Shown: positions 3,479 to 22,300, counted from the first letter of the stretch. The stretch: 61,980 nucleotides of DNA from Nautiliaceae bacterium (GCA_039831155.1 JBDONT010000035.1:1-61980); one strand, 5' to 3'. Numbers and translations are program-made. The notes: a model not told the origin generated them from the letters alone.

Positions 3479-6400
3479 TTGAAAAAAATTTTATTTTTGT
3501 TTTTGAGTGCGTTTTATGTTTTTGCCGCTCAAACTATTATAGTGGATAGTAATGCGATTTGTAAGCCTTCGGGATGTTACGGAGGATGTGAAAGCGGAGA
3601 TAAAACTTATTCTAATATTACCGATGCGGTTAATAATTCTTATTACGGGGATACTATTAAAATATGTAAGGGAAGTTATAGTGACGATATTACTTTAAAT
3701 AAAAGTTTGAGTTTCGTAGCGGCGGCTAACGTTCAAAAACCTACGGATGTTAATTGGACGGCTAGAAATCCTATTACTTTAAACGGTGGTAACGATATTT
3801 ATATAGACGGAATTTATATCGAAAGTACTTTGGGAAATTGTATAAAAGCAAATATAAGTATGACGAAAATAATTATAAAAAACGCCGTTTTGAAAGCTAA
3901 AAATCAAATAGCTTCTGTTGAAAATCTTTATACTCTTTTGGATATAGAAAATTCGACTCTTCAAGCGGGTAGGGAAATTATTTATATAGGCGGTTCCGGA
4001 AGCGATGTAATTATAAAAGATTCTAATTTAACTTCTTCTTCCGATGACGGTATCGATATAATGGGAGCGTTAAACGGGAATGTGAAAATGTATGATGCTA
4101 ATATTTCCGTAGATGATAACGCTTTTTATGTGAACGATAACGTAAACGGTTATTTGAATATAGAAAAATCGCTTATTTCCAGTGATTCCAGAAGCGGATT
4201 TTATTTTTCCGGTAATATTAATAAAGATTTGAATATAACCGATAGTAAAGTAACTTCCGATAATGAAAGTGTAAAGCTTTTAGGGAGTATTTATCAGACT
4301 TTAAACATTATAAATAGTGATTTGAATTCGACTTCCGACGACGGAATAGAAGTGGATAAAAATGCGGATACGATTAATATCGTAAATAGTAAAGTCACTT
4401 CTTATAAAAATGCTTTATATATTTACGGAGGAGACGTTTATAAAGATATTAATATAACTTCCTCTTTACTTTCTTCTCAAAGTTCGGGAGTATATGTGGG
4501 AGGAGGAAATATCGGATATTTCGAACTTAGAGATTCGAATGTGACCGTTGGTAATTACGGATTTTATATAAGAGGAAATTTAAATTCCAATTCCGCGGCG
4601 AATTTGATATCCGATTCCGAAATAAACGTTAGTTCCAGAAACGCTTTATACGTATATGGAAATGTAAACGGTCCTATAATTGTTGAAAATAGTAATATTT
4701 ACGCTCAATCCTATGAAGTGTTTTCTTTTAACGATTCCGTTTATGCGGATATGAATATTTCTAATAGTTCTTTGATTGGTGATGGGGGATTGGAGTTTAA
4801 AGGAGATGATGCTAATAAATTAAGCATTACGGATAGTAATATTTCGGCTTCTTTTTCCTATGCTGTATATTTCGGCGGAGATATGCAAGAAGATTTGAAT
4901 ATTTCGAATTCCGTATTAAAAGCTCCTAATAGTTATACCGTGGATTTTGAAAACGAATCAAAAGGAATTTATATAGATAAATCTTCATTGTCTTCCGATA
5001 GAACCAATATTTATTGTAACGGTGTGGTAAACGGAGATGTAATTATTAGCGATTCCAAATTATCTAGTGATAGTAGATATAATATTTATTTTAACGAAAC
5101 CTCAAATAAAACCCATATTATAAATTCCGAATTAAGTGCTTATAATTCCAATACTTATTTCGGGAATAATGCTTATGATAACGTTTTTGTCGATAATTCT
5201 TCTTTGGATTCTGAAAGCGGGAGCGGAATTATTTTTTATAAAGAAGCGTCGGCAAAAAATCTTTATATAAAAGATTCCAATATAACTAGTGACGATTATG
5301 CCGTTTATCTGGTAACCGCTACGAATATGGAGATAAATTCTTCTCATTTAAAAACCGATTCCAAAGACGTAATATATGTCGGTAGCGATATTAAAGATAC
5401 GTTGATTTATTCCAATTGTATAGACAACAACTCTTCTATAAAAACTAACTACGGTGTTTATGTGGACGATAACAGTTATGACGTAAACGTAACAGATAAC
5501 TGCTTTTATTCTTTTAATAACGGTAATTATGCTTATGATGATTATGATACCCATAGTTGGAACGGTAACTTTTGGTTGGGGGTTAACGATATTAACGGAG
5601 ACGGTAATATAACTCACGATGATACCGATAAAATAAGTTCTACTATATGGGATAGTGAATTTTTAACGAAATGTTCTCATAATTGTATCGGTTTGGTTGC
5701 GGAATGGAGAATGGACGAGTGTAGATGGATAGGAGAAGATTATGAAGTGGGAGATACTCAAGATGAAAATAACGGAACCGCTGTAAACGGGGCTAATACG
5801 GTAAAAACGGGAGTGTTGTGTAGAAGCGGACTTTTTGAAGCACTTAATAAAGAATACGTAAAAGTATCGGCAAGTAATTCTTTAACTCTTAAAAAAACTT
5901 TAACTTATATGGGATGGATAAAAATAACAGACCCTAATTATGTGGGAAATAGTGATAGATTGGAAAATATATTTACCAATCAGACGTGGGCTAACGCTTT
6001 GAGATATACGGAAAAAGGGTATTATAATAACGGTCTGAAAGAAAATAAGATTTTGTTTCAATTAAGTATTAACGGAACTGAAGAATATTTATATTCGAAC
6101 ACTTCCATTACCGATACGAATTGGCATCATATAGCCGTAACGTATGACGGAAATACGATGAAAATTTATATAGACGGAAATTTGGATGCTAGTAAAAGCG
6201 TATCGGGAATAGTTAATACCGGTAATTCCGAGAATATAATAGGAGGAGAATACAATAATTATTATTTTAACGGAAATATAGATGAATTTAAGGTATTTAA
6301 TAAAGCTTTAAGCCAAGATATGATTTCTTATATATATAAGAATGAAAGTTCTTCTAAAAGTTGGGACGGAGGGGAGAGAATTTGTTATATATGCGATATA

Positions 6401-8212
6401 GCTACTGTTTATAATGCCGTTGATTATGTTAATATAGGGGAATGTAACGCTAGTTATAATTGGGACGATAATATTACTACGAAAATAGCCGGAAGTGATT
6501 ATAATCTTACTATTTTGGCTAAGGACGAGAACGGAAATCCGGTTGAAGCTAATGTGACTAAAGTTGAATTTTTATATTATTCCGAAGGTAATCAAAGTGA
6601 ATGTAGCGGAGATTTGATAGGTTCTAAAGTTATTTGTGAAAATTGCGGTAATACGAATAGTAACGGATGTATGACTCTAGATGATGATAATTTGTCCTTG
6701 AATAGGGCGGTTAAATGTGTAGAGGTTTATATTGAAGGTCATGCCGCTCAAAATAGCAGTCCCGATGTGAATGAAAGTAATGCTACGGATGATTTTGCTA
6801 TTAGACCTTATAGATTTAAAATAGTTACTATTCCTTCTAAAGTGAAAGCCGGAAGCGAATTTAATGTAACCGTAGAAGCTTTGGATGAAAAAGGAAATAA
6901 AGTAAAAGATTATAATGAAACGATTTATATTAGAGGGGAGAGTGCGGATTTGGAATATAACGATACTAATTCTAAATGTATAACTGCGGAAATTAATAAA
7001 ACCGACGGAGGAGATTTTATAGACGGAGAATCGAATTTAACTCTTAAATATCCGGAAGTCGGGGATGTTAATTTTACTATTCAAGAAGTGAACGGAAGTG
7101 AGTTTGCTTTTATAGATAATGACGATACTAATATTTCTCAACGTTTAATTATGAAAGATGTTAATAGTACCGAATTTGTCGTACATCATTTCGATGTTAA
7201 CGCTAGCTTGATTAATTATGATACGAACGGAGGATTTACTTATTTAAACAAAGATTTAAATTTGAGTGCGGTATTGGATATAAATATCAGTGCCAAAAAC
7301 GAAGATAATCAAACCGTTGAGAATTATAATGAAGAGTGCTATGCTAAGGATGTTGAGGTTAATGTCAGTTACGAACTTTCTTATTATAATAAAGATATCA
7401 ACGTCACTTATTTAAGATTCGTATTGGAAGATGTAAAAGAAGAGAATTCGTCTTTTATGCAGTTGCCCGTATTAAGTAATTTGGAGATTAATTATACCGA
7501 AGGTAATTTTACTACGGATAATAACGGTTCTACTGCTTTAAGGCTTTATATTAATTTTGACAGAAACGTTTCTTTTCCTTCCAATCCTTTTAAATTGATT
7601 GTAAATGATATTAACGTTACGAATAAAGATAATAATTTATCGTTTGAAGATATTAGCGGGGAAGCTTTGTTTTATTATGGTTTTTTTGATTTGAATGATA
7701 TTTTGACTTCAAGTAACGAGTTAAGTAAAACTTTCGCTTTTGTTATGTACGATGAAAATTCAAGTGATTCTTTAAAACCTCCGACAAAAGAACACGGTTT
7801 TAATTGGTATGAAAATTCTTATCATAACGGAACGGACGGAAATATAAGCGATTCGGAAATTATAATTTCATCGGACGGAAACGTTTCTAACGTAATAACG
7901 GGTGTGGAAGTGAACGTATCGGAAGTGAAAGACGGAAATATAACTTTCGGTATAAAAAAAACCGACCCGTCTTTAAACTTTGCGGTTGTACATATTTTAT
8001 CTCCTAATCTTAAATGGTTATGGTATACCAGATTCGGAGATGAATATAATATTTCAAACGACTCTTCTTGTTTAAATCATTTTTGTTTTACTATTACTTG
8101 GCAAAGTTTGAATAACGAAAAAGGAGAAGTGGGAAGCGGAGAGTTTAACGGTACGGAAGTGAATATAACCGAAAGCAATACTTCTAAAACCGGAGTTAAG
8201 ATTTTTAGATAA
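3479..8212 (+). CDS. Large secreted MshQ-like pilus adhesin (beta-helix repeats, LamG/concanavalin domain, MshQ-like C-terminus)
   Basis: Sec signal [16 protein letters not shown]; ~25-aa I.(D/N)S.(L/I).S repeats typical of right-handed beta-helices; LamG signature [17 protein letters not shown] and [21 protein letters not shown] motif of MshQ-like C-termini; lies near MSHA-like genes. Confidence 0.75.
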
Positions 8213-9023
8213 AGATATTATCTATAAGTCTTGTATCTCCTATTTTCGCAGCTATTAAAATAATAGTGTTATTCGGTTTTATTTTATTTATATAATTGAA
8301 ATCTCTATCTACGAAAGCGATGTATTGAAGTTCGTCCACATCTAAAATATTTACCATTTCTTCTTTTAATTTTTCGGTATCTTTGATTTTTATTGATAGT
8401 TTCGCCGCTCTTTTTAAAGCTTTACTTATTGTTAAGGCTCTTTTTCTTTCCTCTTCGTTTAGGTATATGTTTCTGCTTGATAAGGCAAGACCGTCTTTTT
8501 CCCTTTTTGTTTCACACTCTACTATTTCTATATCGAAAAAGAAATTTTTTACCATCTGTTTTATTAAATATAACTGTTGAGCGTCTTTTTTACCAAAATA
8601 AGCACGGGTTGGACGGGTTATATGAAATAGTTTGTTTACAACCTGCAAAACTCCGTCAAAATGTCCGGGGCGATTGAAACCTTCTAAAATATAGCCTTTA
8701 ATTTTTGGGGCTTTTATTAAAACTTCGTCTTTTGAATACATATTTTCTGCATTTGGGGTAAATACTGCGTCAACTCCCGCACGTTTGCATATTTCAAAGT
8801 CCGCTTCAAGACGTCTTGGGTATTTGTCTAAATCTTCGCCGGGTAGAAATTGAGTCGGATTAACGAAAATGGATACTATCACATAGTCGTTTTCTTCTTT
8901 TGCCTTTTTAATTAAACTAAGATGTCCTTCGTGGAGGGCTCCCATTGTAGGAACGAATCCTATTGAGCCTTTGAGTGTTTTTCTAAATTCTATAGTTTCT
9001 TTAGGAGAATTTAAGATTTTCAT
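8205..9023 (-). CDS. panC: Pantoate--beta-alanine ligase
   Basis: [56 protein letters not shown]. Confidence 0.97.
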
Positions 9024-9081
9024 AATCCGCCTTTTTTGGTAAAATTATATATAAATTCGGAGAAGTTATAAAAGGATGATT

Positions 9082-10185
9082 ATGGATGCTTATGAATATG
9101 GAGAATTAATAAAAGAGCTTGAGAATAAAATAGAAAATATCGAAACTATTTTAAAACCTGAAAAACTTGAAGCCAGACTTAAAGAGATAGAAGAGCTGGA
9201 AAATTCTCCCGAATTTTGGAATGACCCTAAAGCCAGTGCAAAAGTTCAAAAAGAGAAAAATTCTGTTTTAAGAAGACTTGAAAAATATAGAAAAGCTAAA
9301 AGTGCTTTGGAAGATAATAAAGATATGTTCGAGCTTGCGAGTTTAGAAGAGGATGAAGAGACTTTAAATGAGGTTTTTGAGGATGTTAAGGAGTTAAAAA
9401 AAGTTATTAGAGATTTGGAAATTGAAGTTATGCTTAGTGATGAGAATGACTCTAAAAACGCAATTATTACCATTCACCCGGGAGCCGGGGGTACGGAGTC
9501 TCACGACTGGGCTTCCATTCTTTATAGAATGTATTTAAGATATGCCGAAAGAAGAGGCTGGAAGGTTGAGGTGCTTGATTATCAGGCTGGGGATGAAGCC
9601 GGGATTAAAGATGTGAGTTTTCTTGTAAAAGGTGAAAACGCTTACGGATATTTAAAAGTTGAAAACGGAATTCACAGACTTGTAAGGGTTAGTCCGTTTG
9701 ACAGTGCCGGAAGACGCCATACTTCGTTTGCTTCCGTGCAAGTTTCTCCGGAGATTGATGACGATATAGAAATAGAAATAGACCCCAAAGATATAAGAAT
9801 AGATGTGTTTCGTGCAAGTGGGGCCGGAGGACAGCATGTTAATAAAACCGAGAGTGCCGTTAGAATTACCCATATCCCAACCGGAATTGTCGTAGGGTGT
9901 CAAACAGACAGAAGCCAACATAAAAATAAAGAAATGGCGTTTAAAATGCTAAAATCTAAGCTTTACGAACTTGAGCTTGAAAAAAGAAAAGCGGAAGAAG
10001 AAGGAAAACCGAAAGACGAAATGGGATGGGGACATCAGATTAGAAGTTATGTTTTGTTTCCTTATCAGCAGGTAAAAGATAATAGAAGTAATAAAGCTTA
10101 TTCGAAAGTTGACGATATATTGGACGGAGATTTGGATGAAGTGATAGAGGATGTATTGATTTCTCAAAAGGAGACGGAAAATTAA
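9082..10185 (+). CDS. prfB: Peptide chain release factor 2 (single ORF, no programmed frameshift)
   Basis: SPF anticodon-mimic tripeptide, GGQ motif, WG.QIRSYV. The ATG at 9082 fits the AAAGGA RBS better than 9076. Confidence 0.97.
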
Positions 10186-10813
10186 AAAAGGATTAACGTT
10201 AATAGAACTTATTTTTACCATTATCATTATAGGAGCGGTTTTTACCGTAATTCCTAGAATAATTTACGTAAGTAATAAGGCTTTGGAATTTTCGAAAAGA
10301 GAAGATTCTATGTTTAATATGATGGGAAAAATTATGGATATTTCTTTAAAAGAATACGATGAAAACAATACGAATTCGGATGATATTTTGGTTGTTAACG
10401 AGCCTCCTAGATATGTACTTGATTGTAATGCTTCGAGCGGATATAGAATAGGAGGGTTTAAAGGTAGCAGAAACTGTCTAAATGATATAAGCGAAAGTTA
10501 TATTCCTACTAATAAAAGCGGAGAATATGATTATATAGAAGGGTATAACGGAGTGGAGGAAAATACTTCTTTATACGGGAGGACTTATTACACTCTTTAT
10601 ATACAAGTAGGATATACCGGAGAATGGAATAAAAGTAATTATGATTATGCAAAAGGTTCTTTGGATTACGATTTCAGTTCCGTATCGGATAATAATAAGA
10701 CTAATATTAAAAGAATACATATAGTCGTTTCTCAAAACGGAAATAATGTTTCTTCGGTAAATTACTATAGTGCTAATATAGGACATATAAGAATAGAGAG
10801 TGTGAGATGGTAA
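10181..10813 (+). CDS. Minor pilin (MshD-like) with type IV prepilin leader; probable ATT start
   Basis: In-frame extension of ORF 10283 gives (M)[24 protein letters not shown]. There is no in-frame ATG/GTG/TTG between the stop at 10157-10159 and 10283. AAGGAG lies 7 nt upstream of ATT at 10181. Confidence 0.75.
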
Positions 10814-10815
10814 AA

Positions 10816-11778
10816 ATGAGGAAATCTTTTACTTTAATAGAAATTATTTTCGTTATAATTATATTAAGTTTCGTTTTAATAGGGGGGTTTCAAATTATAG
10901 GTAAGCTTTATTTAAGAAATTATTTGGTAAAACAAACTTCGAAGTTTGAATTTTCTTCTCAGCAGGTGTTGGATGAGTTAAGCGGTATTTTATATAGTAG
11001 AATACCTATTAGCGTTATAGGATATGATCCTATAAAGCACGATTTTAAATATATAGGTTTTATAGAGGATGATAATAATTATACGGTTTTAGAATGGATA
11101 GGATATGCCAAAGATGCTATGGTGGATAGAAATTTAAGCGGTTTTGTAGATTTATATGACAGTGATAGAGACAGTAAAACTATATCGTGTTTGGATTTTA
11201 ATTACTCTTTTGTTCAGGAAGTTATAAATAATAAGTTCAAATATCCTCTTACTAGAGATTTAAACGAAAGTACCGCTATTATTTTTGCCGGAAATTTCGA
11301 TAGGGGAGATGAAGAGGCGTTAAGTGATTATAATGATTCTTTCGGTTGGCACGGTTATAAACACGAGTATCTTTTTACGTTTGAGAAAAATTCATCTGAC
11401 GGGGGAGATGTGAATTTGACTCTTAATAATTTTACTCACGGAAATATTTATGAGAAATTTTATTTAGCGGAAAGTGCTTATGCCGTGGCATTGGTTAAAG
11501 ATTTAAATTCTTCTTTGTTTAATAATTGTAAAGATATAAATTTGTCGCAAGAAGATAATAATACTTTAGTTTTATTTTATAACTACAGACCTTGGCTCGG
11601 GCAAACTTTTTGTGCGGATAATAACGGGACACCGGAAGGAAACGTAACGGTGCTCGCTCATAACGTTAGGTCTTTTAAAATTAAAAAAGTAAATTCTCAT
11701 TTAGAATTGGAAATAGAACTTTTTAAATCTAAAGGGGATATTAATATTTCCGTTTCAAAACAGAAGGTGGCATTTTGA
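10816..11778 (+). CDS. Minor pilin (MshO-like)
   Basis: MRKS|FTLIEIIFVIIILS prepilin motif (start 10807 or 10816); 320 aa; within the pilin run. Confidence 0.8.
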   Translation: MRKSFTLIEIIFVIIILSFVLIGGFQIIGKLYLRNYLVKQTSKFEFSSQQVLDELSGILYSRIPISVIGYDPIKHDFKYIGFIEDDNNYTVLEWIGYAKDAMVDRNLSGFVDLYDSDRDSKTISCLDFNYSFVQEVINNKFKYPLTRDLNESTAIIFAGNFDRGDEEALSDYNDSFGWHGYKHEYLFTFEKNSSDGGDVNLTLNNFTHGNIYEKFYLAESAYAVALVKDLNSSLFNNCKDINLSQEDNNTLVLFYNYRPWLGQTFCADNNGTPEGNVTVLAHNVRSFKIKKVNSHLELEIELFKSKGDINISVSKQKVAF

Positions 11779-12215: not shown

Positions 12216-12668
12216 ATGAGTAAATCGTTTACTTTAATCGAACTTATTTTTGTATTGGTAATAGGAATCATTTTAATGATAAGCGGGCTTGAGTTTTTAC
12301 CGGATGAAACTTTTACTTCCGATAAACAGATGCTGGAAATGAAAATAATGCAAAAAAAATCGAATGCGTTGGGGTATTATTATACAGGTGAGAATAATTA
12401 TAGTTGTTTGGAAATTAATAAGACTTGGCTTAATGAAGAGGATAATATAAGCGATAAAATACATTATACTTTTAAATCCGATATATCGGTTGTTTCGGGA
12501 TTAAAAAACGGAAATACTATTTGTTTCGATTATTTAGGGAGAATGTATGACGGATATGTCGATGAAAAGTTGACAAATTTAGTAGATACGATTATAATTC
12601 TTAATCTAAAATACAAAAAACACGATGAAAATATAACTCTCTATCCTTTAACTGGAGAAATAAGGTGA
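12216..12668 (+). CDS. Minor pilin (MshC/FimT/GspH-like)
   Basis: MSKS|FTLIELIFVLVIG; ICFDYLGR and I..LTG.I C-terminal motifs of FimT/GspH-like pilins. Confidence 0.78.
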   Translation: MSKSFTLIELIFVLVIGIILMISGLEFLPDETFTSDKQMLEMKIMQKKSNALGYYYTGENNYSCLEINKTWLNEEDNISDKIHYTFKSDISVVSGLKNGNTICFDYLGRMYDGYVDEKLTNLVDTIIILNLKYKKHDENITLYPLTGEIR

Positions 12669-12672
12669 AAAA

Positions 12673-14103
12673 GTGAAAATAGTTTATCTTGCTAAGGATA
12701 AAATTTACGTAAATGAAAACGGTAGAGTTGTTAGGAAAGATTTCGGATTTGAAAAAGGTGTTATAACTTCCATTTTAGAATATAAGCACGTTTTTAATAT
12801 AACTTTTAAACTTCCGAAAAATTTAGATAAAGAGATGTTGGAAATAGAAGCTGAGAAGTATATTTTTACCGAAAGTTCTCTGGATTACACTAAGGATTAT
12901 AAAATTAATTTCTTTTTTAAAGAGTATGAAGATTTTTATAACGTCGAAGCTTTTGTTGTGGATATGGACGTTTTAAAAAGAGAGTATGAAGAGTATTTAA
13001 AAACTTATAAATTTATAGATTTCATAACTCTTAAACCTTTTGTATTCGAAGCGTATTACGATATAGCTAAACTCCCTAAAAAAAGAGATGTTTTTATTTT
13101 TTTTAATGAAGAAGACGCTTTTTTAAGTTGTTTTGTGGACGGAGAGTTTGTATTTGTAAAAAGTTTGAATAAATTAGCTACTTTAGCTAAGGAACTTAAT
13201 TTAAGTATAAAAGATACCGTTGCTTTGTTAAAAGAGAAAGGTTTGGACGTTCAAAATTATGAAGAAAAGGTTCAATTTGAAATAGTGGAATCTTTTTTTT
13301 CTCAGTTTTTTATGAAAGTTAATCATCTTTTAAGTTATGCAAGTAGTTATTATAAAGTGGATAATTTAGAGAGAATGTTTTTTTATTCTTCTTTCGAGAT
13401 TAAGGGGCTTTTTGAAAAATATAAGGAGTTTTGGAATTTAAGCGGAGTTGAATTTAGAGAATATAAAGTAAAAACGGATTATGATAGTTTTGATTATACC
13501 GCTGTGGTTTACAACTCCAAACATTACAAAAACGAAAAAGAAAATTTTTCTATTTTTCCTAGACCTATACCTTTTTACAAGACTCATAGCGGAATTTTGA
13601 TTATACTTATTTTAGTGGTGGGATTAGGGGGAGCCGTTGATGCTTTTTTGAAATATCGTGTTATGTTGGAACAAGAAGAATATATAGTGAAATTAAGAAA
13701 TCAACTTTCTCATAGAAAAAAACAGATTCAGACTTTAAAAGCTTTGATTAACAAATATGATAAACAAATAGCTCTTTTAGAAAGTAAGAATAAAAAACTA
13801 AAATCCGAAATAGAGGATATTTCTAAAAAAATAGATTATTTGCATTCTATTCAAATGAAAAAGCTTAGTGCTAACGAATTGGCGGATTTAGCTTTTGAAT
13901 TGAAAAAATATCATTTAAAACTTTTATCTTTTAAAAAAGAGCAATCTCATATTAAAGTTTCTATTATAAGTGATTTTGATAATTCGGCTGATGTTGCTAA
14001 ATTTATGCAAGGGATGTATAAAAGGGGGTATAAAAATGTTAATTTGGCTAAAATTGAAAACTTTAACGGAATTTATATTTCGGAAGTGAGCTATGATGAA
14101 TAA
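12673..14103 (+). CDS. PilM-PilN/MshI-like alignment protein (cytoplasmic domain, TM, periplasmic coiled coil)
   Basis: Large N-terminal soluble domain, one TM near residue 310, then a coiled coil; occupies the PilM/N position. Confidence 0.6.
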   Translation: MKIVYLAKDKIYVNENGRVVRKDFGFEKGVITSILEYKHVFNITFKLPKNLDKEMLEIEAEKYIFTESSLDYTKDYKINFFFKEYEDFYNVEAFVVDMDVLKREYEEYLKTYKFIDFITLKPFVFEAYYDIAKLPKKRDVFIFFNEEDAFLSCFVDGEFVFVKSLNKLATLAKELNLSIKDTVALLKEKGLDVQNYEEKVQFEIVESFFSQFFMKVNHLLSYASSYYKVDNLERMFFYSSFEIKGLFEKYKEFWNLSGVEFREYKVKTDYDSFDYTAVVYNSKHYKNEKENFSIFPRPIPFYKTHSGILIILILVVGLGGAVDAFLKYRVMLEQEEYIVKLRNQLSHRKKQIQTLKALINKYDKQIALLESKNKKLKSEIEDISKKIDYLHSIQMKKLSANELADLAFELKKYHLKLLSFKKEQSHIKVSIISDFDNSADVAKFMQGMYKRGYKNVNLAKIENFNGIYISEVSYDE

Positions 14104-14701
14104 GTTAGCCGTTTTAAAGAAATTAGAGAATTATCTGGAATCGTTAGATCAAAAAAACAGATTGGTTTTATATGCGTCGGTTATATTTGCAGGTATAATT
14201 CTTTATTATAATATAAATTTATCTTTTTTACAGGATGAAATCGATTATAACGTAAATGTTATAGAAAAATTGAAAAAAGAGATGAAAAGTCCGGGAGTTT
14301 TAAGAGTTAAATTAAAAAAGAAAAAAAAGATACTTAATAAAGTAAAAAAAGAAAACACTTTTTTAAGCGAAAACGTTAAATATTTGAAGATGTTAATTGC
14401 AACTTCGTCGGTATTACATATTAATGAAAATAGTTTTTTAGAAATTTTAAGAAAAGTTCTTTTGCACGCTTCGGAAAACGGAATTACCGCTTCTTATGTA
14501 ATTGATGAAGAAAAAGGGGATTACGTAAGTTATATTATAAATATAAAAGGGGCTTTCGAAAGAAAGAATTTTAAAAATTTTTATGCTTTTATAAGAGATT
14601 TGGAGGCTATTAAAGCTATTAAAAGTATAGATTCTTTAACTTTTTATAAAGTTGAAAATGTAGGTTTTGAGATAAATTGTAAATTTTGGGGTCTTAAATG
14701 A
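14093..14701 (+). CDS. PilO/MshJ-like inner-membrane alignment protein
   Basis: N-terminal TM, coiled coil, C-terminal I.G.F....F..F...LE pattern; gene position. Confidence 0.6.
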   Translation: MMNKLAVLKKLENYLESLDQKNRLVLYASVIFAGIILYYNINLSFLQDEIDYNVNVIEKLKKEMKSPGVLRVKLKKKKKILNKVKKENTFLSENVKYLKMLIATSSVLHINENSFLEILRKVLLHASENGITASYVIDEEKGDYVSYIINIKGAFERKNFKNFYAFIRDLEAIKAIKSIDSLTFYKVENVGFEINCKFWGLK

Positions 14702-15072
14702 AAAAAGCGGTCGTTTTATTAGGGAGTTTACTGTTTGCCGATATTAATAATATTATAACCGAAATTAAAGAAATAGAGTCTTTTAAGCCGCGTTTTAAAC
14801 CTCTTGTAAGATACGATGTGTTTGATGCGGCGAAAGTAATAAAAATAAATAAAAAACAACCTACGATAAAAGCTATAGTTGTAGAACCTAAACTTTATTT
14901 GAAAGCTATATTTAATAAAAAAGCTAATATAAACGGTAAATGGGTAAAGGTTGGGGATGAAATAGGGGGTTATAGAGTGATTAGAGTGGATGCGAACGGA
15001 GTTTTGTTACAAAAATTTAGAAAAAGATTATATTTGAGAGTCAAAATATCAGTAATAAAGGTTGTGAAATGA
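14698..15072 (+). CDS. MshK/PilP/CtsR-like periplasmic protein
   Basis: Signal peptide; L.AIFN.KA.ING.WVKVGD.IGGY.V..V motif; directly upstream of the secretin. Confidence 0.7.
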   Translation: MKKAVVLLGSLLFADINNIITEIKEIESFKPRFKPLVRYDVFDAAKVIKINKKQPTIKAIVVEPKLYLKAIFNKKANINGKWVKVGDEIGGYRVIRVDANGVLLQKFRKRLYLRVKISVIKVVK

Positions 15073-16415
15073 AGAAAATATTATTATTAATATTAGGGAC
15101 GTTTTTGTTTGCGGGGGTATGTGATAAGAGGCTTTTTAATCTTCATATTACACAAGGGGTACAATTAAAATCTATTCTTTCGGATTTAGTTAATGAATGT
15201 CAATTAAACGTAGTTTTAAAAGACAATATTTCTAGTAGATTGATTAATAAAAATATAGAATTGATTAATGTAAAAGACGTGACTTTAAAAGAACTTTTGA
15301 ATATTATATTTCAACATGCTAATCTGTTTTACGAAATGAAAAACAATACTATTTACGTGTCTTATACTAAGACTAAAACTTTTAAAGTGGATTTTATTCC
15401 TAATACTGTAACCGGAATTTCAAATATAGATTCTACCGATAATAGTGTAGTTAATAACTATAAATTTGATTTTTGGAGCGATTTACAAGCTAATATAGTA
15501 CAAATTTTAAGAAATGTGGATGAGAATTTTAAAAAGCCGGTAATAGATAAAAATTCCGGACTTATAAGTGTAACAGGTAATAGAGCTCAAATAAATGAAG
15601 TTGCAAAGTATATTAAAGAATTGAATGAAAGATTGCATAAGCAAGTATTGATAGATGTAAAGATATATACCGTTACGCTTTCTAAGTCTCATCAAACCGG
15701 TATCGATTGGTCTAAACTTTCCGTTACTTTACCTACTACTTCCGTGCCTCTTAGAGGAACTAATATTTTAGGTAAAAATACCGTGTTTAAAAACGCTACT
15801 TTCGATATAAGCGGTTTTTTAAACTTCTTATCTCAAAATGGAGATGTGAACTCCATATCAAATCCTAAAATCGTAACGCTTAATAATCAAAAAGCTTTAA
15901 TCAGCGTAGGGGATACTATTTATTATAAGTATGCTTCTCAAGTGGAAAATAACGATAACGGAAATCCTACCACTACTTATACTATAGATAGTAAATTTGT
16001 AGGAGTTTTACTTGATATAACACCTCAAATTAGTGATAACGGAGAGATAATTTTAAGTATTAATCCTAGAATAAGCTCTTTTAAAGATACTTCTCAATTA
16101 TCTAATATAAATAGAGATATGCCTCCTGATACTCAAGAAAACACTATGATAAGCGTTGTTAAACTAAAAGATAACGATACTTTAGTTTTAGGCGGATTAA
16201 TTACTGACGATAGGGCTTTAAAAGTAAACGGAGTACCGGTTTTAAAAGAAATTCCTTTAATTAAATATCTTTTTTCTTCTAAAGAAAAGGTTACTAATAA
16301 AAAAGAATTGGTATTCGTAATTACTCCTCATATTATTAATTTAGATAAAAAAGTACGTTTAAAAGATTACGGATTTAAAAAATTACCTACTTTAGAGGAA
16401 TTAGATGTTAAATGA
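15069..16415 (+). CDS. mshL: Outer-membrane secretin (MshL/CtsD-like)
   Basis: QVLIDVKI, GIDWS, SNPKIVTLNNQKALISVG, GVLLDITPQI, LVLGGLI, VPVLKEIPLI..LF, ELVFVITPHII. Confidence 0.92.
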   Translation: MKKILLLILGTFLFAGVCDKRLFNLHITQGVQLKSILSDLVNECQLNVVLKDNISSRLINKNIELINVKDVTLKELLNIIFQHANLFYEMKNNTIYVSYTKTKTFKVDFIPNTVTGISNIDSTDNSVVNNYKFDFWSDLQANIVQILRNVDENFKKPVIDKNSGLISVTGNRAQINEVAKYIKELNERLHKQVLIDVKIYTVTLSKSHQTGIDWSKLSVTLPTTSVPLRGTNILGKNTVFKNATFDISGFLNFLSQNGDVNSISNPKIVTLNNQKALISVGDTIYYKYASQVENNDNGNPTTTYTIDSKFVGVLLDITPQISDNGEIILSINPRISSFKDTSQLSNINRDMPPDTQENTMISVVKLKDNDTLVLGGLITDDRALKVNGVPVLKEIPLIKYLFSSKEKVTNKKELVFVITPHIINLDKKVRLKDYGFKKLPTLEELDVK

Positions 16416-17088
16416 TTTAATAGAAGCTTTTAGGGATAAAATCGATATAAACGATTTTTTTAGTTATCTTAATTTCGAAATGGTAAAAGAGGAACTCATT
16501 TCCTCTAAAAGTAATATTATTTTTCTTTTAGGTGCTCCCGGAATAGGGAAAAGTTATATGCTTGCTTTATTAAAAGCTAAATATCCTCAAAGTTATGTTC
16601 TACAAAAAGCACCGTTTTTAAGTAAAGAAGAGTTTTTAGAAACTCATAAGGATTTAGAAAATAAAACCGTTTTAATAGATGAAGCTCAACTTTTATCATT
16701 AGAGATGATAGAGTTTTTAAGAATTTTAAGTGATGAAGGTAATAGAATAATTTTGAGTATGCATGAAAAAGAAGGTGAAGAAATAGCTTCTTTACCTCAA
16801 TTTAATTCCAGATATACTCAAAAAATATATATGAAACCTTTAACTAAAGAAGAATTTGAAAAATATGTGATGTCAAAATTTATAGAAAAAAGAAGGTTTG
16901 ATTTAATAGATAAAAAAGGAATAAAAAAAATTTATAAATTTTCAAAGGGTAATTTCAGATTATCTAAAAAATTTGTGTTTACGTGTTTGAATTTGTTAAA
17001 TTATTCTTTTAATAACTCTTTAAAATATACTAAAATAGACAATTGCATTATAGAAATGAGTGCTATTGAATTGGGACTTTTAAAATGA
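16405..17088 (+). CDS. AAA ATPase (MshM/CtsP/ExeA-like)
   Basis: Walker A GAPGIGKS, Walker B LIDEAQ, S.GN.R; follows the secretin. Confidence 0.82.
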   Translation: MLNDLIEAFRDKIDINDFFSYLNFEMVKEELISSKSNIIFLLGAPGIGKSYMLALLKAKYPQSYVLQKAPFLSKEEFLETHKDLENKTVLIDEAQLLSLEMIEFLRILSDEGNRIILSMHEKEGEEIASLPQFNSRYTQKIYMKPLTKEEFEKYVMSKFIEKRRFDLIDKKGIKKIYKFSKGNFRLSKKFVFTCLNLLNYSFNNSLKYTKIDNCIIEMSAIELGLLK

Positions 17089-17735
17089 CTTTTTTAGAAT
17101 TGGAAAAAAAATGTAAAGAAAGAAGGCTGAAGCGAAAAATTGTTATTTTTTTTATTTTAATATTTTTAATAAGCGGAGCGGGAATTATTTATTTTATCGG
17201 ATTTAAAAATATCTATGTGAATAACAAATCTTTAAATAATGTTAAGTTGATTAATAAAACTTCGAATTCCGCATATAAACTTAAGCTTAATAAAATAGAA
17301 ATTAAAAAACAAAAATTTGAATATTCTTCTACGAAAGTTACGAAAAATCAACAGATATTACTTCCGGATTTAAGTTTCGAATTTCCTAAAACTTTAAAAA
17401 CTTTAAAACAAAAACCTAAACGAGAAGAAATTAAAAACAAAAATGAAATATCTAAGAAAAAAAGTTCTTTTTTAAATAGCGATGTACTTCCTTCTTATAA
17501 AGAATGTATTCGTTTAGCTAAAAAATTTTATAATAAAAAAGATTATGAAAATGCTTTAAAATGGGCTAAAAACGCTAATATGCAAAATAATAAAAAAGAA
17601 GATTCTTGGATTATTACGGCTTTGTCTTTATATAAAATAGGTAAAAAGGAAGAAGCGGTAAAAGTTTTGAGAATATATTATAATTATAATAAAAGTGAAA
17701 AGATAAAAAAACTTTTAAAGGAGTTGAATGAATAA
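17085..17735 (+). CDS. Membrane-anchored TPR protein (MshN/CtsX-like)
   Basis: N-terminal TM; C-terminal TPR-like LAKKFY..KDYENALKWA..A....SWII.A.SLYKIGKKEEA..L. Confidence 0.75.
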   Translation: MTFLELEKKCKERRLKRKIVIFFILIFLISGAGIIYFIGFKNIYVNNKSLNNVKLINKTSNSAYKLKLNKIEIKKQKFEYSSTKVTKNQQILLPDLSFEFPKTLKTLKQKPKREEIKNKNEISKKKSSFLNSDVLPSYKECIRLAKKFYNKKDYENALKWAKNANMQNNKKEDSWIITALSLYKIGKKEEAVKVLRIYYNYNKSEKIKKLLKELNE

Positions 17736-18237
17736 GTTGAGTTTAATTTTATTATTTTTCGTAACTTTATCTTATGCCGGAATAGTTGAAGATTTTATGA
17801 ATAACAAATATGCGAAAATTTGCAATTTTAATAATATCAGAACATATCTTAAAGATGAAAAAATGTTGAGTATTATAGGGGTTTCTTGCGTGAGAAGCGA
17901 TAAACTTTTTTTGTTGCCTTTTATCGTGAATAAATTGAAAAAAACTTCATACGGTAGAAAAAACGCTATTTATTTCGTTACTATTTTTATGGAAAAGAAA
18001 CTTTTATATTCTTATTTGTTTGATGGTTTTGACATTAATAGTTTTTCGTTTCCTAAAACAGATTATGTTTTATCTATTGTTTTTGATGCCGTTAAAAATA
18101 AAAAATATGTAAGAAAAAATAATTTTATTATCGTAAATAATAAAAATATCTCTTACTATATTTATAAAAAAAATGATAAAATGATAATTGATAAATTTGA
18201 AGGAGATAAACTAATAAAAAGGTATTGGTACAGATGA
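17728..18237 (+). CDS. Hypothetical exported protein in the pilus operon
   Basis: Signal peptide ending SYA; overlaps both neighbours; AAGGAG RBS. Confidence 0.7.
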   Translation: MNKLSLILLFFVTLSYAGIVEDFMNNKYAKICNFNNIRTYLKDEKMLSIIGVSCVRSDKLFLLPFIVNKLKKTSYGRKNAIYFVTIFMEKKLLYSYLFDGFDINSFSFPKTDYVLSIVFDAVKNKKYVRKNNFIIVNNKNISYYIYKKNDKMIIDKFEGDKLIKRYWYR

Positions 18238-19907
18238 TTAGACAAAAAATAAAATTAGGGGATTTATTAATAAATGAAAAAATAATTAAACCGGAAGAAC
18301 TTGAAGTAGCTTTAAAAAAACAACAAGAGTATAAAGCGGTAGGTAATTATAAAAAATTAGGAGAAATTTTAATAGAACTTGGATTTGCAACCGAAAAGCA
18401 AATTTTGGAAATTTTGTCGAGTCAGTTGGGATTTCCTTTTGTAGACTTATACGGAGAGCAAATAGATTACGATTTTATAGCGTCGTTTCCTATTTCTTTA
18501 ATAGAAAGATATCATCTTGTTCCTTTTAAACAAGAGGATAATTATATTTATGTAGCGACTGCCGACCCTTTGGATTATGATGCTATCGAACTTTTTGAAA
18601 AATTTTCACCGGCACCTCTTAAGATTTTTATAGCTTTAAGTAAAGATATTCAAATAGTAATAGACAGGTTAAAAATTAAACTTTCTCAAAAAGAACTTAT
18701 CGATAAAGTAAAAAAAGAACTTAAAAGCGGTGGTAGTGAAAATATTAGTGCCATTGACGAACTTTTGGATTTGATTTTGGAAAACGCTATTAAAGAAAGA
18801 GCGACGGATTTACATATAGAACCTTTAAAATATGATTTTTCGGTAAGAGTGAGGGTGGATGGTGTTTTGCATGAGAGTTTTTCTTTTGAAAAAGATATTT
18901 ATTATCCTTTGGTATCTAAAGTAAAACTTCTTGCGAGTATGGATATTAGTGAAAAAAGAAAACCTCAAGACGGTCGTTTTACTAAAAAATTCCATTTGCA
19001 TACTTATGATTTTAGGGTTTCCACCACGCCTACTTTACATGGGGAGAGTGTCGTTTTAAGGATTTTGGACCAAGAAAAAATTCTACTTAGAATGGTAGAA
19101 TTGGGAATGAGCGAATATAACTTAAAAAGATTCGAAAAGTTAATTCATACGCCTTATGGAATAGTGTTTGTAACAGGACCTACCGGAAGTGGTAAAACAA
19201 CAACTTTATATGCGGCTTTGAATGAAATTAAAGGAGTTGATAAAAAGATTATTACGGTTGAAGACCCTATAGAATATGAAATTCCTTTAATTCAGCAAAT
19301 ACCGGTGAATCATAAAATAGGATTTGAGTATTCGGTGGCTTTAAGAAGTATTTTAAGACAAGACCCGGATATCATTATGATAGGTGAGGTTAGGGATAAA
19401 GAAACTTTAGAAGCTGCTATTCAAGCTTCATTAACGGGGCATTTGGTTTTAGCCACTTTACATACCAATGACGCTCCTAGTGCGATTACGAGAATGATTC
19501 AAATGGGTGCCGAAAATTATATGGTCGCCGATTCTTTAGTGGGAGTTGTGGCCCAAAGACTTGTAAGAAGAATTTGTCCTCATTGTAAAACGGAATATTA
19601 TCCTTCTAAAGAAGAATTGGAAATTATTAAACCTTATTTAAAAGAAGAGATTACTTTTTATAAGGGAGAAGGTTGTAAGGAGTGCGGATTTACAGGTTAT
19701 TTAGGGAGAGAAATGGTTAGTGAGGTATTGGTGGTAAATGATGTTATTTCTCATATGATTGCTATTAATAAAGATAAATTGGAAATTTTGGAAACAGCTA
19801 AAAGATTCGGATTTACAACTATGATAGAAGATGCTATTAATAAAATTAAAACGGGTGTTACTACATTAAAAGAAGTATTAAGGGTGGTAAAAGTTGATGT
19901 ATTTTAA
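18234..19907 (+). CDS. mshE: Pilus extension ATPase (MshE/PilB/GspE/CtsE family) with N-terminal MshEN-like domain
   Basis: GPTGSGKTTTLY, TVEDPIEY, LRQDPDIIMIGEVRD, TGHLVLATLHTND, Zn CxxC pairs; tandem KLG..L N-terminal motifs. Confidence 0.92.
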   Translation: MIRQKIKLGDLLINEKIIKPEELEVALKKQQEYKAVGNYKKLGEILIELGFATEKQILEILSSQLGFPFVDLYGEQIDYDFIASFPISLIERYHLVPFKQEDNYIYVATADPLDYDAIELFEKFSPAPLKIFIALSKDIQIVIDRLKIKLSQKELIDKVKKELKSGGSENISAIDELLDLILENAIKERATDLHIEPLKYDFSVRVRVDGVLHESFSFEKDIYYPLVSKVKLLASMDISEKRKPQDGRFTKKFHLHTYDFRVSTTPTLHGESVVLRILDQEKILLRMVELGMSEYNLKRFEKLIHTPYGIVFVTGPTGSGKTTTLYAALNEIKGVDKKIITVEDPIEYEIPLIQQIPVNHKIGFEYSVALRSILRQDPDIIMIGEVRDKETLEAAIQASLTGHLVLATLHTNDAPSAITRMIQMGAENYMVADSLVGVVAQRLVRRICPHCKTEYYPSKEELEIIKPYLKEEITFYKGEGCKECGFTGYLGREMVSEVLVVNDVISHMIAINKDKLEILETAKRFGFTTMIEDAINKIKTGVTTLKEVLRVVKVDVF

Positions 19908-21114
19908 GATTGAATATATTTCAAAAGGAAAAATACAAGAAATTATTATTCCGGCGAAAAATCCGCTTGAAGCCGTTAGAAAGTTTAGAGCTAGGAAGTT
20001 GGGTATATTTAGAAATATGGAGATTATAGAAAAAAAATCTTTTTTGGAAGAACTTGGAGATAAGCTTAATCTTTCCAAAATAGACTTGGAAGAGTATATA
20101 AGTATTCTTGACCAAATGTATGTAATGCTTGATGCGGGACTTGCTATTGATGCGGTAGTTGTCGATATAAAAGACAATATTAAAAATAAAAAACTGAAAA
20201 AAATTTTTAATTCTATTGCGAACGATATTAAAGCCGGACTTTCTTTAACGGCGGCTTTTGAAAAATTTGAAAAGGAGTTGGGTAAATTAACGGTTTCACT
20301 TATAAAGTTGGGAGAAGAAACCGGGGATATAGCAATGGCTATAAAAGATTTATCCATTATTTTATACGAAATTTTAGATAATAGAAAAAGACTTAAAAAA
20401 GCTACAAGATATCCTATTTTTATAGTTTTTGCTATGAGTATAGCATTTGTAATTGTTATTTTATTTGTTATTCCTCCTTTTAAATCTTTATTTGCCGAAT
20501 TAAAAAGTGAACTTCCTCTACCTACTAAATTTTTAATATGGGTTGAATCGGCTCTTGAAACTTATGGAGTTTATACGTTGGTAGGAGCGGTAATTATTTT
20601 CGGTATTATCAATTTACTTTATAATAAATCGGAAAGAATGAAACTTTTTATGGATAAATTGCTTTTAAAAGTATATATTGTAGGGCCGGTTATTAAACTT
20701 GCTATGATAGGAAGGTTTGTTTACGTTTTACAAAGACTTATAGAATCGGGTATTCCTATTTTGGATGCGGTTGATATCGCTTTGAATATTATAGAAAACT
20801 CATATATAAAACAACAATTTATGCATATTAAAAATTCGATTGTTACGGGAGGGACTATTAAGCAAGGATTTGAGGATACTAAAATGTTTGAAAATATGGC
20901 GGTTCAAATGGTAGGAGCCGGCGAAGAGTCAGGAGCATTGGTTTTAATGCTTCAAAAGGTAAGTAAATATTATATGGAAAAATACAGATTTTTAGTTGAA
21001 AATATCTCGGTATTGATAGAACCGATTTTAATTGCTGCGATTGCAGGATTCGTAATTACTTTAGCCCTTGGTATATTCTTACCAATGTGGAGTTTAACCC
21101 AAGCGGCACAATAG
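19894..21114 (+). CDS. mshG: Inner-membrane platform protein (MshG/PilC/GspF/CtsF family)
   Basis: Two GspF domains (GEETG / GEESG), A.RYP, IEPILI, LGIFLPMW. Confidence 0.92.
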   Translation: MMYFKIEYISKGKIQEIIIPAKNPLEAVRKFRARKLGIFRNMEIIEKKSFLEELGDKLNLSKIDLEEYISILDQMYVMLDAGLAIDAVVVDIKDNIKNKKLKKIFNSIANDIKAGLSLTAAFEKFEKELGKLTVSLIKLGEETGDIAMAIKDLSIILYEILDNRKRLKKATRYPIFIVFAMSIAFVIVILFVIPPFKSLFAELKSELPLPTKFLIWVESALETYGVYTLVGAVIIFGIINLLYNKSERMKLFMDKLLLKVYIVGPVIKLAMIGRFVYVLQRLIESGIPILDAVDIALNIIENSYIKQQFMHIKNSIVTGGTIKQGFEDTKMFENMAVQMVGAGEESGALVLMLQKVSKYYMEKYRFLVENISVLIEPILIAAIAGFVITLALGIFLPMWSLTQAAQ

Positions 21115-21122
21115 GAGATAAT

Positions 21123-21218
21123 GTGGGAATAGAAACAGGCAGTATAGCGACAGCGATAGTAAGTATGTTTATTTTAGGTTTTATTTTATGGGTTGTGCAT
21201 AAAATTTCAAATATATAA
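21123..21218 (+). CDS. Small (31 aa) single-TM protein, not in ORF track
   Basis: AGGAG at 21113-21117, GTG start 5 nt later; MGIETGSIATAIVSMFILGFILWVVHKISNI*. Confidence 0.6.
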   Translation: MGIETGSIATAIVSMFILGFILWVVHKISNI

Positions 21219-21259
21219 AAATGAAATTTTTATAATTTTTTTGTAAAATTTTCACTACA

Positions 21260-21290
21260 TCGGTGTAATTATTTGTTATAATTACACCGA
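21260..21290. promoter_or_regulatory. Perfect 13-bp inverted repeat overlapping an extended -10 upstream of the major pilin
   Basis: TCGGTGTAATTAT-TTGTT-ATAATTACACCGA, containing TGTTATAAT (21274-21282). Confidence 0.65.
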
Positions 21291-21319
21291 CGCAAAAAAA
21301 ATTTGTAAAAGGAGAATAA

Positions 21320-21802
21320 ATGAAAAAAGCGTTTACATTAATCGAATTAATTTTCGTGATCGTAATTATCGGTTTATTAGCGGCGGTTGCAATTCCTAAA
21401 TTCCAAAACTTAAGACAAAATGCAATCGTAACAGGTGCACTTCAACCTTTAACTGACTTAAATTCTTCAGGTGGTGCTTCTTCATTCTTAAACCAAGCTG
21501 AATTAAACGGCGTAAATTTAGAAGATATCAATATGACTAATCTTTACAAATTTACAGGTAAAGAGTGGACAGCTGACACTACTAACAAACAAGTTACTTA
21601 CAGAAGTGGTCAATATGATTTCAATGCTACATTTACTTATGATGCAAATCATAGTACAGGTGAAGCTAACGTAACTGTTAAATATTACTGTGATACAAAA
21701 TCAAGAAGTGGTAAAGCTTTCGAAAACGCTTTAAAAGCTAAAGGTTATGATTGTTCTGCAACAGGTAAAACTTATATTATTGATTTAACAACTCAAGACT
21801 AA
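21320..21802 (+). CDS. Type IV pilin, probable major subunit (MshA-like)
   Basis: MKKA|FTLIELIFVIVIIGLLAAVAIPKF; C-terminal Cys pair; strong AAGGAG RBS and its own promoter; ATC/TTC/AAC/GGT codon bias like glnA and metE. Confidence 0.88.
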   Translation: MKKAFTLIELIFVIVIIGLLAAVAIPKFQNLRQNAIVTGALQPLTDLNSSGGASSFLNQAELNGVNLEDINMTNLYKFTGKEWTADTTNKQVTYRSGQYDFNATFTYDANHSTGEANVTVKYYCDTKSRSGKAFENALKAKGYDCSATGKTYIIDLTTQD

Positions 21803-21805
21803 TAA

Positions 21806-22300
21806 ATGAGAAAGGCTTTTACGTTAATAGAACTTATCTTCGTAATAGTCTTAATTGGGGTATTGGCATCAGTTGCCATCCCCAAATTTACTCATCTTGC
21901 TACAAATGCCAAATCTGCCGGCGTAAAATCTTTGGTAACTTCTATAGATTCTTCTATCGAAAATATTCACGGTAAATGGATAGTTAACGATAGTTATGCA
22001 TGGATAGGTGCCGATGGAGCAGACCACAGTAGTGATTTTAATAATACAACCGGTTATCCGGCTAAACTGGATGACGGTAGTGGAAGTACTTCTTTGTTTT
22101 CTTATGTTTTAAAAGTACCCGTACCTTCTTGTCAAGGAAAAACGAGAGGTTGTTGGGAAGAGTATGATGATAACAGATATGAGTATTACTATACAGGTGG
22201 TAAAATCTTAAAACTCGATTATAATCAATCAAACGGTACTTTAGAGTGTGTTGACGGTGTAGGGGTTACAAAAGAAGAGTGTGAAAAAATAATCCACTAA
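21806..22300 (+). CDS. Second type IV pilin (MshA/MshB-like)
   Basis: MRKA|FTLIELIFVIVLIGVLASVAIPKF; GYP motif; four Cys. Confidence 0.85.
   Translation: MRKAFTLIELIFVIVLIGVLASVAIPKFTHLATNAKSAGVKSLVTSIDSSIENIHGKWIVNDSYAWIGADGADHSSDFNNTTGYPAKLDDGSGSTSLFSYVLKVPVPSCQGKTRGCWEEYDDNRYEYYYTGGKILKLDYNQSNGTLECVDGVGVTKEECEKIIH

Follow-up and report, generated by a model that had tools for sequence, protein, structure and literature searches.

Can a bacterial type IV pilus be a heavily N-glycosylated structure? In textbooks the type IV pilins of bacteria are O-glycoproteins, and N-glycosylation of type IV filaments is regarded as a feature of archaea. The question is raised by a pilus locus at 3479-22300 of a 61,980-nucleotide stretch of DNA from a hydrothermal-vent Nautiliaceae bacterium (GCA_039831155.1, JBDONT010000035.1:1-61980; here referred to as the window), which belongs to a genome of 1.53 Mb in 43 contigs, 96.7% complete and with a guanine-plus-cytosine (GC) content of about 31%. 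A first-pass annotation had described the adhesin and all pilins of this locus as loaded with D/E-X-N-X-S/T, the acceptor motif of the oligosaccharyltransferase PglB (here the extended sequon; counts written x/y are extended sequons over all N-X-S/T). We consider it quite probable that PglB N-glycosylates this mannose-sensitive haemagglutinin (MSHA)-type pilus, its filament subunits and MshQ-like adhesin having been selected for many acceptor sites. The annotation's reading of a heavily N-glycosylated pilus draws support from shuffled sequences, from an intact pglB gene in a pgl-like locus and from the ranking of all proteins in the genome.

Extended sequons in the pilus proteins

The 1577-residue MshQ-like adhesin carries 56/76 extended sequons (74%), and 39 of the 56 lie within its last 590 residues; our recount therefore agrees with the earlier hand count of about 55, with about 39 in that region and an acidic residue at -2 in about three quarters of all sites. 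Composition-preserving shuffles of the whole protein gave 4.7 ± 2.1 and none of 2000 reached 56, while shuffles within blocks of 10 or 20 residues gave 5.5 and 5.0, with a maximum of 14. The six pilins jointly have 31/37, as against 1.8 ± 1.3 in block shuffles with a maximum of 8, so that the enrichment over shuffled sequences is extreme for both the adhesin and the pilins. As had been claimed, each pilin has at least two: 5/7 in the open reading frame (ORF) at 10181 (10283), 13/14 in the minor pilin at 10807, 2/2 in the pilin-like protein at 11775, 4/4 in the minor pilin at 12216, 5/5 in the major pilin at 21320 (N48, N71, N102, N110 and N117) and 2/5 in the second pilin at 21806. The pilin sequons listed by the first-pass annotation were borne out in general, and only its figure of about 11 for the 10807 pilin had to be raised to 13. 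Taken alone, two of the six are weak, since the two sequons of the 11775 protein are matched by 4-9 of 2000 block shuffles and those of the 21806 pilin by 31-35 of 2000.

The motif itself was analyzed at the 178 N-X-S/T sites of 14 pilus proteins of the genome. Seven of these proteins, the adhesin and the six pilins, belong to this locus, and the others are three minor-pilin-like proteins (C20:293787-295902; C numbers denote contigs), three pilin paralogues (C20:50843-52269) and a second MshQ-like protein (C2:36334-39183). At -2, D/E has a frequency of 0.76, and elsewhere between -6 and +6 the values stay within 0.06-0.16. Within the adhesin the frequency at -2 reaches 0.93 in the last 590 residues (D 0.49, E 0.44) and only 50% in the beta-helix part. 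In the 14 proteins, [DE].N.[ST] occurs 137 times when 9.8 are expected, and with N replaced by D, Q, S, G, K or T the ratio of observed to expected is only 0-1.5. Moreover, S/T stands at +2 in 77% of cases after [DE].N and in 14% after any other x.N, compared with a background of 16%, so N-X-S/T lacking the acid is at chance. Pro is present at -1 or +1 in 1/137 extended sequons, and these two positions are mostly occupied by I/V. Judged by these frequencies, the pentapeptide is selected as a single unit in the pilus proteins, and it is, by its residue pattern, the bacterial extended sequon, neither an acidic patch nor a metal-binding loop; the definition in a passage of PMC8342417 matches it.

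We then ranked the whole proteome, represented by 1603 ORFs of at least 70 residues from a crude longest-ORF script rather than a gene finder, by the Poisson probability of the sequon counts. Pilus proteins make up 10 of the 15 most enriched ORFs, and the MshQ-like adhesin ranks first by 25 orders of magnitude; the proteome-wide count proposed earlier thus singles out the pilus proteins. When proteins were classed by a heuristic of N-terminal hydrophobicity, which is not a signal-peptide predictor, the 14 pilus proteins (4803 residues) held 136 (9.6 expected) of the 291 extended sequons among hydrophobic-N-terminus proteins in only 3.9% of the residues. The other 375 proteins of this class have 155 (65.8 expected), and the remaining 1214 proteins have 183 (244.6 expected), a deficit that may point to slight avoidance or to a fault in the simple way the expectation was computed. 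D/E is present at -2 at a frequency of 0.76 in the pilus proteins, 0.20 in the other hydrophobic-N-terminus proteins and 0.11 in the rest. In this last class the other positions from -6 to -1 have 0.12-0.14.

Proteins close to the pilus in location, composition or export route provide internal controls. The nine pilus-machinery proteins encoded at 12673-21114 have 1/20 extended sequons in total (assembly trio 1/5, secretin 0/4, AAA, TPR and 169-residue proteins 0/7, ATPase 0/1, platform protein 0/3). FliD (48523-50229, matched by NCBIfam FliD), proposed earlier as an internal control with about 12 N-X-S/T and 2 acidic at -2, reproduced exactly this pattern with 2/12 when 1.6 are expected. Four type II secretion pseudopilins on contig C35, which share superfamily, export route and topology with the pilins, have 2/6. 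From the poverty of these pseudopilins despite the shared route it follows that enrichment tracks how exposed the finished structure is at the surface, and not simply whether a protein can reach PglB. The pseudopilins lie in a type II secretion-like cluster (C35:30364-41029) together with secretin-, ATPase- and platform-sized ORFs, where genes were assigned by size and order only, the prepilin motif excepted.

PglB and the distribution of the sequon-rich pilus

Is there an enzyme that could use these sites? The window contains no pgl gene, as had been stated, and the search of the genome found exactly one STT3 match, an intact PglB at C36:9992-12106, on a contig other than that of the pilus locus and within a pgl-like cluster. 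The protein is 704 residues long, with a Pfam STT3 match of 91 bits and the WWDYG motif at residue 465. It matches NCBIfam ProtGlycPglB from end to end with 395 bits, below an equivalog cut-off of 1300 that is tuned to Campylobacter, and aligns over its full length to the Campylobacter lari PglB structures 6gxc/3rce (E about 1e-103, about 350 bits). In C. lari PglB, D56, D154/D156 and E319 are catalytic and R331 contacts the acid at -2; their counterparts here are D47, a YYDTDM stretch, E307 and R319. The flanking region (C36:196-15482) encodes WecB, three glycosyltransferases, a flippase-like protein with seven transmembrane segments, a PglC-like phosphoglycosyltransferase, a PglE-like aminotransferase and a PglF-like dehydratase, and no PglD-like acetyltransferase was identified among the genes of this region. 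On these matches, the PglB is apparently competent and accompanied by a glycan-assembly locus. A passage of PMC2952790, from 2010, mentions PglB homologues in Nautilia, Caminibacter and Nitratiruptor. Among relatives of this genome (G001-G040) we observed two PglB lineages, 51-68% and 37-40% identical to its PglB; genus-mates G001 and G004 have the distant lineage only, and G009 and G018 have both.

The sequons are retained in homologues. Ten MshQ C-terminal domains of relatives, with 41-52% identity, have 24-39 extended sequons each; 14 alignment columns have a sequon in at least eight of the ten, 35 of 86 sequon columns are singletons, and conservation is 0.62 for sequon Asn and 0.45 for other Asn. 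This pattern fits selection on particular sites as well as on overall density. Of 20 C-terminal homologues obtained from elsewhere in the phylum, 17, from seven further families, carry 10-33 (0.5-1.9 expected), and the three exceptions, weak partial matches in genomes G241, G132 and G250, have 0/1, 0/7 and 0/11. A profile search of 1.84 billion cluster representatives obtained 2408 proteins at E ≤1e-3, and the best 150 of these all carry 8-41 extended sequons in their last 590 residues, with a mean of 23.2 against 1.5 expected. For the major pilin, 115 of the best 120 homologues (38-100% identical, from sources including Nitratiruptor, Lebetimonas, Sulfurimonas and Nitrosophilus) carry one extended sequon or more (mean 3-4). 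When 40 of these pilin homologues were aligned, 39 had the sequon at N48, 36 that at N71 and 31 that at N102. By these comparisons, sequon loading is a family trait of these pilus proteins.

The MshQ C-terminal domain was found in 85 of 301 genomes of the phylum and STT3 in 217. Read from the result rows, STT3 is present in 84 of the 85 genomes with the domain and in 133 of the 216 others, a co-occurrence that is descriptive only, as kin are not independent. The one MshQ-domain genome in which STT3 is lacking is G250, the bearer of one of the sequon-free partial matches. Four pilin-like ORFs from the STT3-negative genomes G033, G041 and G048, a small sample comprising four of six matches (a G075 ORF and a second G048:C28 ORF were left out), have 1/5 extended sequons.

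Structure, mechanism and alternatives

AlphaFold modelled the last 600 residues of the adhesin, from an alignment of 10 sequences, as an all-beta structure of moderate quality (predicted local distance difference test, pLDDT, 69; predicted template modelling score 0.54). Foldseek matched this model only to generic immunoglobulin (Ig)-like arrays (PrgB, invasin, FdeC, filamin and macroglobulin domains) at template modelling scores of 0.12-0.24. The region can be described as a probable string of Ig-like beta-sandwiches, which is a description of fold and not of homology. The model of the major pilin is good (pLDDT 90); it combines a long alpha-1 helix and an alpha-beta loop with a sheet of four strands, and two Cys are close to the C-terminus. 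Its best Foldseek rows are weak (lowest E 0.06) and are headed by the type IVa (T4a) pilins FimA, PilE, PAK and PpdD; they agree with a T4a pilin fold, and no more is read from them. In this model N48 is placed at the end of alpha-1, N71 in the alpha-beta loop and N102, N110 and N117 in the sheet. No sequon falls in the N-terminal half of alpha-1, the part that T4a filaments bury.

How might the glycans be attached? To judge from their N-termini, prepilins and adhesin would use the Sec route for insertion or export, and their bodies would lie in the periplasm. Inner-membrane PglB, with its active site on the periplasmic side, would transfer to the sequon Asn a lipid-linked oligosaccharide that the pgl-like genes adjoining pglB would have built, and transfer would come before prepilin processing and assembly. 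Many sequons are in predicted beta-strands and have I/V at -1 and +1, so that the outward face of the strand would present their D, N and S/T, and transfer most likely precedes folding. Prepilin peptidase and the Msh machinery would then assemble the subunits. On the resulting filament each major pilin would bear about 3-5 N-glycans, and the distal adhesin roughly one for every 15 residues, a coat that might shield against heat, proteases or phage, or tune adhesion.

Several observations weigh against glycosylation of the pilus in this way. Of the 22 sequon Asn in confident blocks of the adhesin model, 14 are within beta-strands, and PglB prefers flexible segments; some sites may therefore be poorly used, and sequon occupancy may be incomplete. 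PglBs of other deep-sea vent bacteria are reported to be active and to vary in sequon recognition, according to a passage in PMC6025236 citing Mills et al. 2016, so the specificity of this PglB is inferred from the pilus sequons themselves. Moreover, in a 99% complete relative (G012) the sole STT3 gene is split by in-frame TAA stops and lies in five or more fragments, and its MshQ homologue still has 24/33 and its pilin-like ORFs 12/21; the corresponding values for a genus-mate with intact PglB (G008) are 25/29 and 8/22, and G012 is no lower. The pilus locus of G012 looks truncated too, with an MshQ homologue split into 179 and 660 residues, a short TPR gene and a second pilin lacking its N-terminus; glycosylation system and pilus may recently have decayed together, or the sequence may be poor. 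The broken PglB of G012 is located at C1:801500-806500 and its pilus genes at 925000-953500. In another relative, G013 (96% complete), no STT3 was found and the MshQ homologue has 38/47. Equal density in PglB-negative taxa, which the first-pass annotation regarded as evidence against glycosylation, was thus observed in these two genomes, both close kin. Related-locus and plasmid searches yielded no MshQ or MshA from PglB-negative phyla: the search with the MshE protein found only 3 loci, all from close Nautiliaceae, the search by alignment found 11 (10 from Nautiliales/Nautiliaceae and one from Sulfurimonas), and tblastn of the adhesin C-terminal domain against plasmids gave no match.

The sites could also be genuine PglB sites that serve periplasmic folding, quality control or protease protection, or of which few are occupied, so that no dense coat is formed. 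The 14 strand-bound Asn speak for this, as folded protein is no substrate, and the singleton columns among the 10 homologues suggest that individual sites are dispensable. However, the pseudopilins reside in the periplasm by the same route and topology and are not enriched, three pilin sites are kept in 31-39 of 40 homologues, and density is retained in all of the best 150 of the 2408 representatives; we regard such limited use as unlikely, though it is the strongest of the competing explanations. A good deal less probable is a structural or metal-binding motif of beta-rich folds, such as an Asn ladder or a Ca-binding turn, that involves no glycosylation. The beta-helix repeat consensus I-x-D/N-S-x-I/L-T/S does partly coincide with the sequon, the acid is at -2 in only half of the N-X-S/T of the beta-helix part, and G012 retains its motifs despite its broken PglB. 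Nevertheless, folds as unrelated as alpha/beta pilins and Ig-like domains, and also proteins of no family, share the enrichment in this pentapeptide. In the C-terminal domain, D and E have about the same frequency at -2; moreover, +2 is S as often as T, positions -1 and +1 are free except for Pro, and the three distant partial domain homologues have jointly 0/19. We rejected a Ca-binding or Asn-ladder motif, as D/E is confined to -2 and no excess appears when other residues replace N.

Two further explanations can be given very little weight. The pilus might be O-linked by an enzyme of the PglL/TfpO type, as in other bacteria, with incidental N-sequons. The genome does encode one Wzy_C-family protein (a 448-residue frame, C28:29275-29769), either a WaaL ligase or an O-oligosaccharyltransferase, but it is on contig C28, away from all pilin genes, and the 14-fold excess of an Asn-centred pentapeptide would be left unexplained. 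In addition, N- and O-linked modification are not mutually exclusive, and as a replacement for N-glycosylation this explanation is highly improbable. A compositional artefact has hardly any chance of being correct. The pilus proteins contain 10.4% Asn, and N/D/S/T-rich surface proteins are encoded in an AT-rich genome of the GC content given above, but whole-protein and 10- or 20-residue block shuffles never came near the observed counts, and FliD, of similar composition, has no excess. Shuffles together with the N-replacement ratios refute it.

Glycosylation of the pilus by PglB can be compared with systems already known. In common with the pgl systems of Campylobacter jejuni and C. lari, there is a full-length PglB with WWDYG and aligned catalytic residues, PglC/E/F-like genes and glycosyltransferases beside pglB, and the same sequon in exported proteins. 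In contrast to them, the Nautiliaceae PglB reaches only about 350 bits with the C. lari enzyme and its main predicted clients are type IV pilus proteins, of which we know none in Campylobacter. The 56 sites on one protein are also far denser than in Campylobacter glycoproteins, which are not known to have more than a few sites each. The MSHA locus of Vibrio cholerae (mshI-Q) shares the MshE-type ATPase with MshEN, the T2SSF platform protein, the secretin, the AAA_22 and TPR proteins, several minor pilins and an MshQ-type protein with LamG and DUF6701. In the Nautiliaceae locus, by contrast, the mshQ-like gene is upstream and two genes apart from the minor pilins, its product has an added N-terminal beta-helix, and MshI/J/K are recognized by position only. 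To our knowledge, MSHA pilins are not known to be N-glycosylated.

The O-glycosylated pilins (Neisseria PglL/PglO, Pseudomonas TfpO/PilO) resemble the predicted case in that their glycan, too, is on a portion of the T4a pilin that is exposed, and the alpha-beta loop with the conserved N71 is the region that bears the Neisseria O-glycan. They differ in linkage, which is to Ser/Thr via a Wzy_C-type enzyme instead of the predicted Asn/PglB linkage, and here several sites per subunit are predicted, minor pilins and adhesin included. The HMW1 adhesin of Haemophilus influenzae is N-glycosylated at about 30 sites by cytoplasmic HMW1C, a GT41 enzyme that adds hexoses and needs no D/E at -2. It is likewise a large bacterial adhesin with dozens of N-X-S/T, but the acid at -2 in 74-93% of the sites of the Nautiliaceae adhesin points to PglB. 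A 206-residue protein that is also called PglB we take to be a Neisseria-type protein of the same name. It is the 'Pilin glycosylation protein' of PMC7762298, far below the approximately 700 residues of STT3-type enzymes, and was set aside. In archaeal type IV pili and archaella, a passage of PMC2952790 describes subunits with several N-sites modified by the STT3-family AglB on the outer side of the membrane. These filaments are alike in that type IV subunits offer several N-glycosylation sites to an STT3-family enzyme, and unlike in that the Nautiliaceae system has a bacterial PglB, needs an acid at -2 and uses a type IVa pilus machine with a secretin.

No paper describing N-glycosylated bacterial type IV pili was found in the full-text literature searched, a coverage that excludes most subscription journals, and the matches listed for PglB together with MshA, MshQ or MSHA contained nothing relevant. 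By term search, the Nautilia profundicola genome paper mentions pilin genes and lacks the terms 'glycosyl' and 'N-linked'. PglB glycosylation of a bacterial type IV pilus would accordingly be a new combination of known kinds, strongly supported by sequence. The PglB signature in the sequences, both strong and specific, spans at least 150 clusters at 50% identity and eight families of Campylobacterota. Were it confirmed by mass spectrometry, the natural main PglB substrates of free-living vent bacteria would be identified, the evolution of glycan coats on type IV filaments could be compared between two domains, glycoengineering would obtain natural proteins in which dozens of sequons work and a PglB from a thermophile lineage, and the handling by PglB of sequons that end up inside beta-strands would become testable. 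More speculatively, and with somewhat more against it than for it in our estimation, type IV pili might be the principal and perhaps ancestral PglB clients in Campylobacterota, with deep-branching vent lineages wearing an archaeal-style dense N-glycan coat. Each major pilin would then carry three conserved glycans and the Ig-like MshQ stalk about one every 15 residues, all attached before folding, and in Campylobacter and Helicobacter the pilus would have been lost first and PglB kept or lost afterwards. Were this true, no known protein family of bacteria would be more heavily N-glycosylated.

Layout of the locus and neighbouring features

By its gene content, the 3479-22300 region is an MSHA-type type IVa pilus locus (Table 1). 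The adhesin consists of right-handed beta-helix repeats (about 150-700), a LamG domain (791-949; Pfam Laminin_G_3, E 1e-24) and a DUF6701 C-terminal region (about 975-1577), and Pfam Beta_helix was matched as well. DUF6701 was seen only when the C-terminal 602 residues were scanned alone (45 bits, E 1e-11, cut-off 27). We take DUF6701 to be the MshQ-type domain, which justifies the name MshQ-like, and the LamG and DUF6701 matches agree with the earlier naming of the protein. The ORF at 10181 encodes a genuine prepilin. No ATG, GTG or TTG was present upstream of the prepilin motif when the frame of this first minor pilin was inspected, and its likely start is ATT at 10181, about 7 nucleotides 3' of AGGAG. 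For the three assembly proteins (ORFs 12673, 14093 and 14698), the Pfam and NCBIfam scan gave no family match above cut-off. A prepilin peptidase is encoded elsewhere in the genome (Peptidase_A24, C20:22686-22985, 56.5 bits).

Table 1. Features of the pilus locus, with positions counted from the first letter of the window.
Feature	Coordinates	Strand	Basis of assignment
MshQ-like pilus-associated adhesin, 1577 residues	3479..8212	+	Laminin_G_3, Beta_helix, DUF6701; signal-like N-terminus
Pantoate-beta-alanine ligase-like	8205-9023	-	by eye
Release factor 2-like	9076-10185		by eye, GGQ motif
Minor pilin	10181..10813	+	11-residue prepilin motif, read directly; frame open from 10160
Large minor pilin, 323 residues	10807..11778	+	N_methyl motif, match below cut-off
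Pilin-like protein, 146 residues	11775..12215	+	hydrophobic N-terminus without Glu5; no family match; PilX/MshP-like by position
Minor pilin, 150 residues	12216..12668	+	N_methyl motif, match below cut-off
Three assembly proteins, 476, 202 and 124 residues	12673..15072	+	MshI/J/K-like, position only
Secretin, MshL-like	15069..16415	+	Pfam Secretin, E 4e-48
AAA ATPase, MshM-like	16405..17088	+	AAA_22
TPR protein, MshN-like	17085..17735	+	TPR
169-residue protein	last ORF of 16405..18237	+	no family match
Extension ATPase, MshE-like	18225..19907	+	Pfam T2SSE, E 1e-126; N-terminal MshEN, E 1.5e-15
Platform protein, MshG-like	19894..21114	+	T2SSF
Major pilin, 160 residues	21320..21802	+	N_methyl / TIGR02532
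Second pilin, 164 residues	21806..22300	+	N_methyl / TIGR02532

Between the mshQ-like gene and the minor pilins lie two genes of housekeeping appearance (8205-10185), and a two-gene spacer is found likewise in G013 and G012. For the 18225-22300 segment, two metatranscriptome runs from one hydrothermal-vent sample (X1 and X2) contain 0.93 and 0.90 of the sampled words, which as evidence of expression may be DNA carry-over, and five DNA-type runs from four other studies contain 0.24-0.40.

The second MshQ-like protein, at C2:36334-39183, has 949 residues and 18/26 extended sequons and stands alone, with no pilus genes beside it. Its match to DUF7305 is below cut-off, and its C-terminus is 35% identical to residues 1101-1564 of the adhesin. 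Within the window, a protein of 335 residues with a hydrophobic N-terminus (38584-39591, minus strand) has 9/11, ranks sixth in the proteome and belongs to no Pfam or NCBIfam family; its sequons suggest that it is likely another N-glycoprotein, unrelated to the pilus. Further sequon-rich non-pilins are C35:43118-44536 with 10/13 and C32:32359-33129 with 7/11, both without a family match, and C18:1489-2682 with 7/15, which weakly matches the surface adhesin Lsa25.

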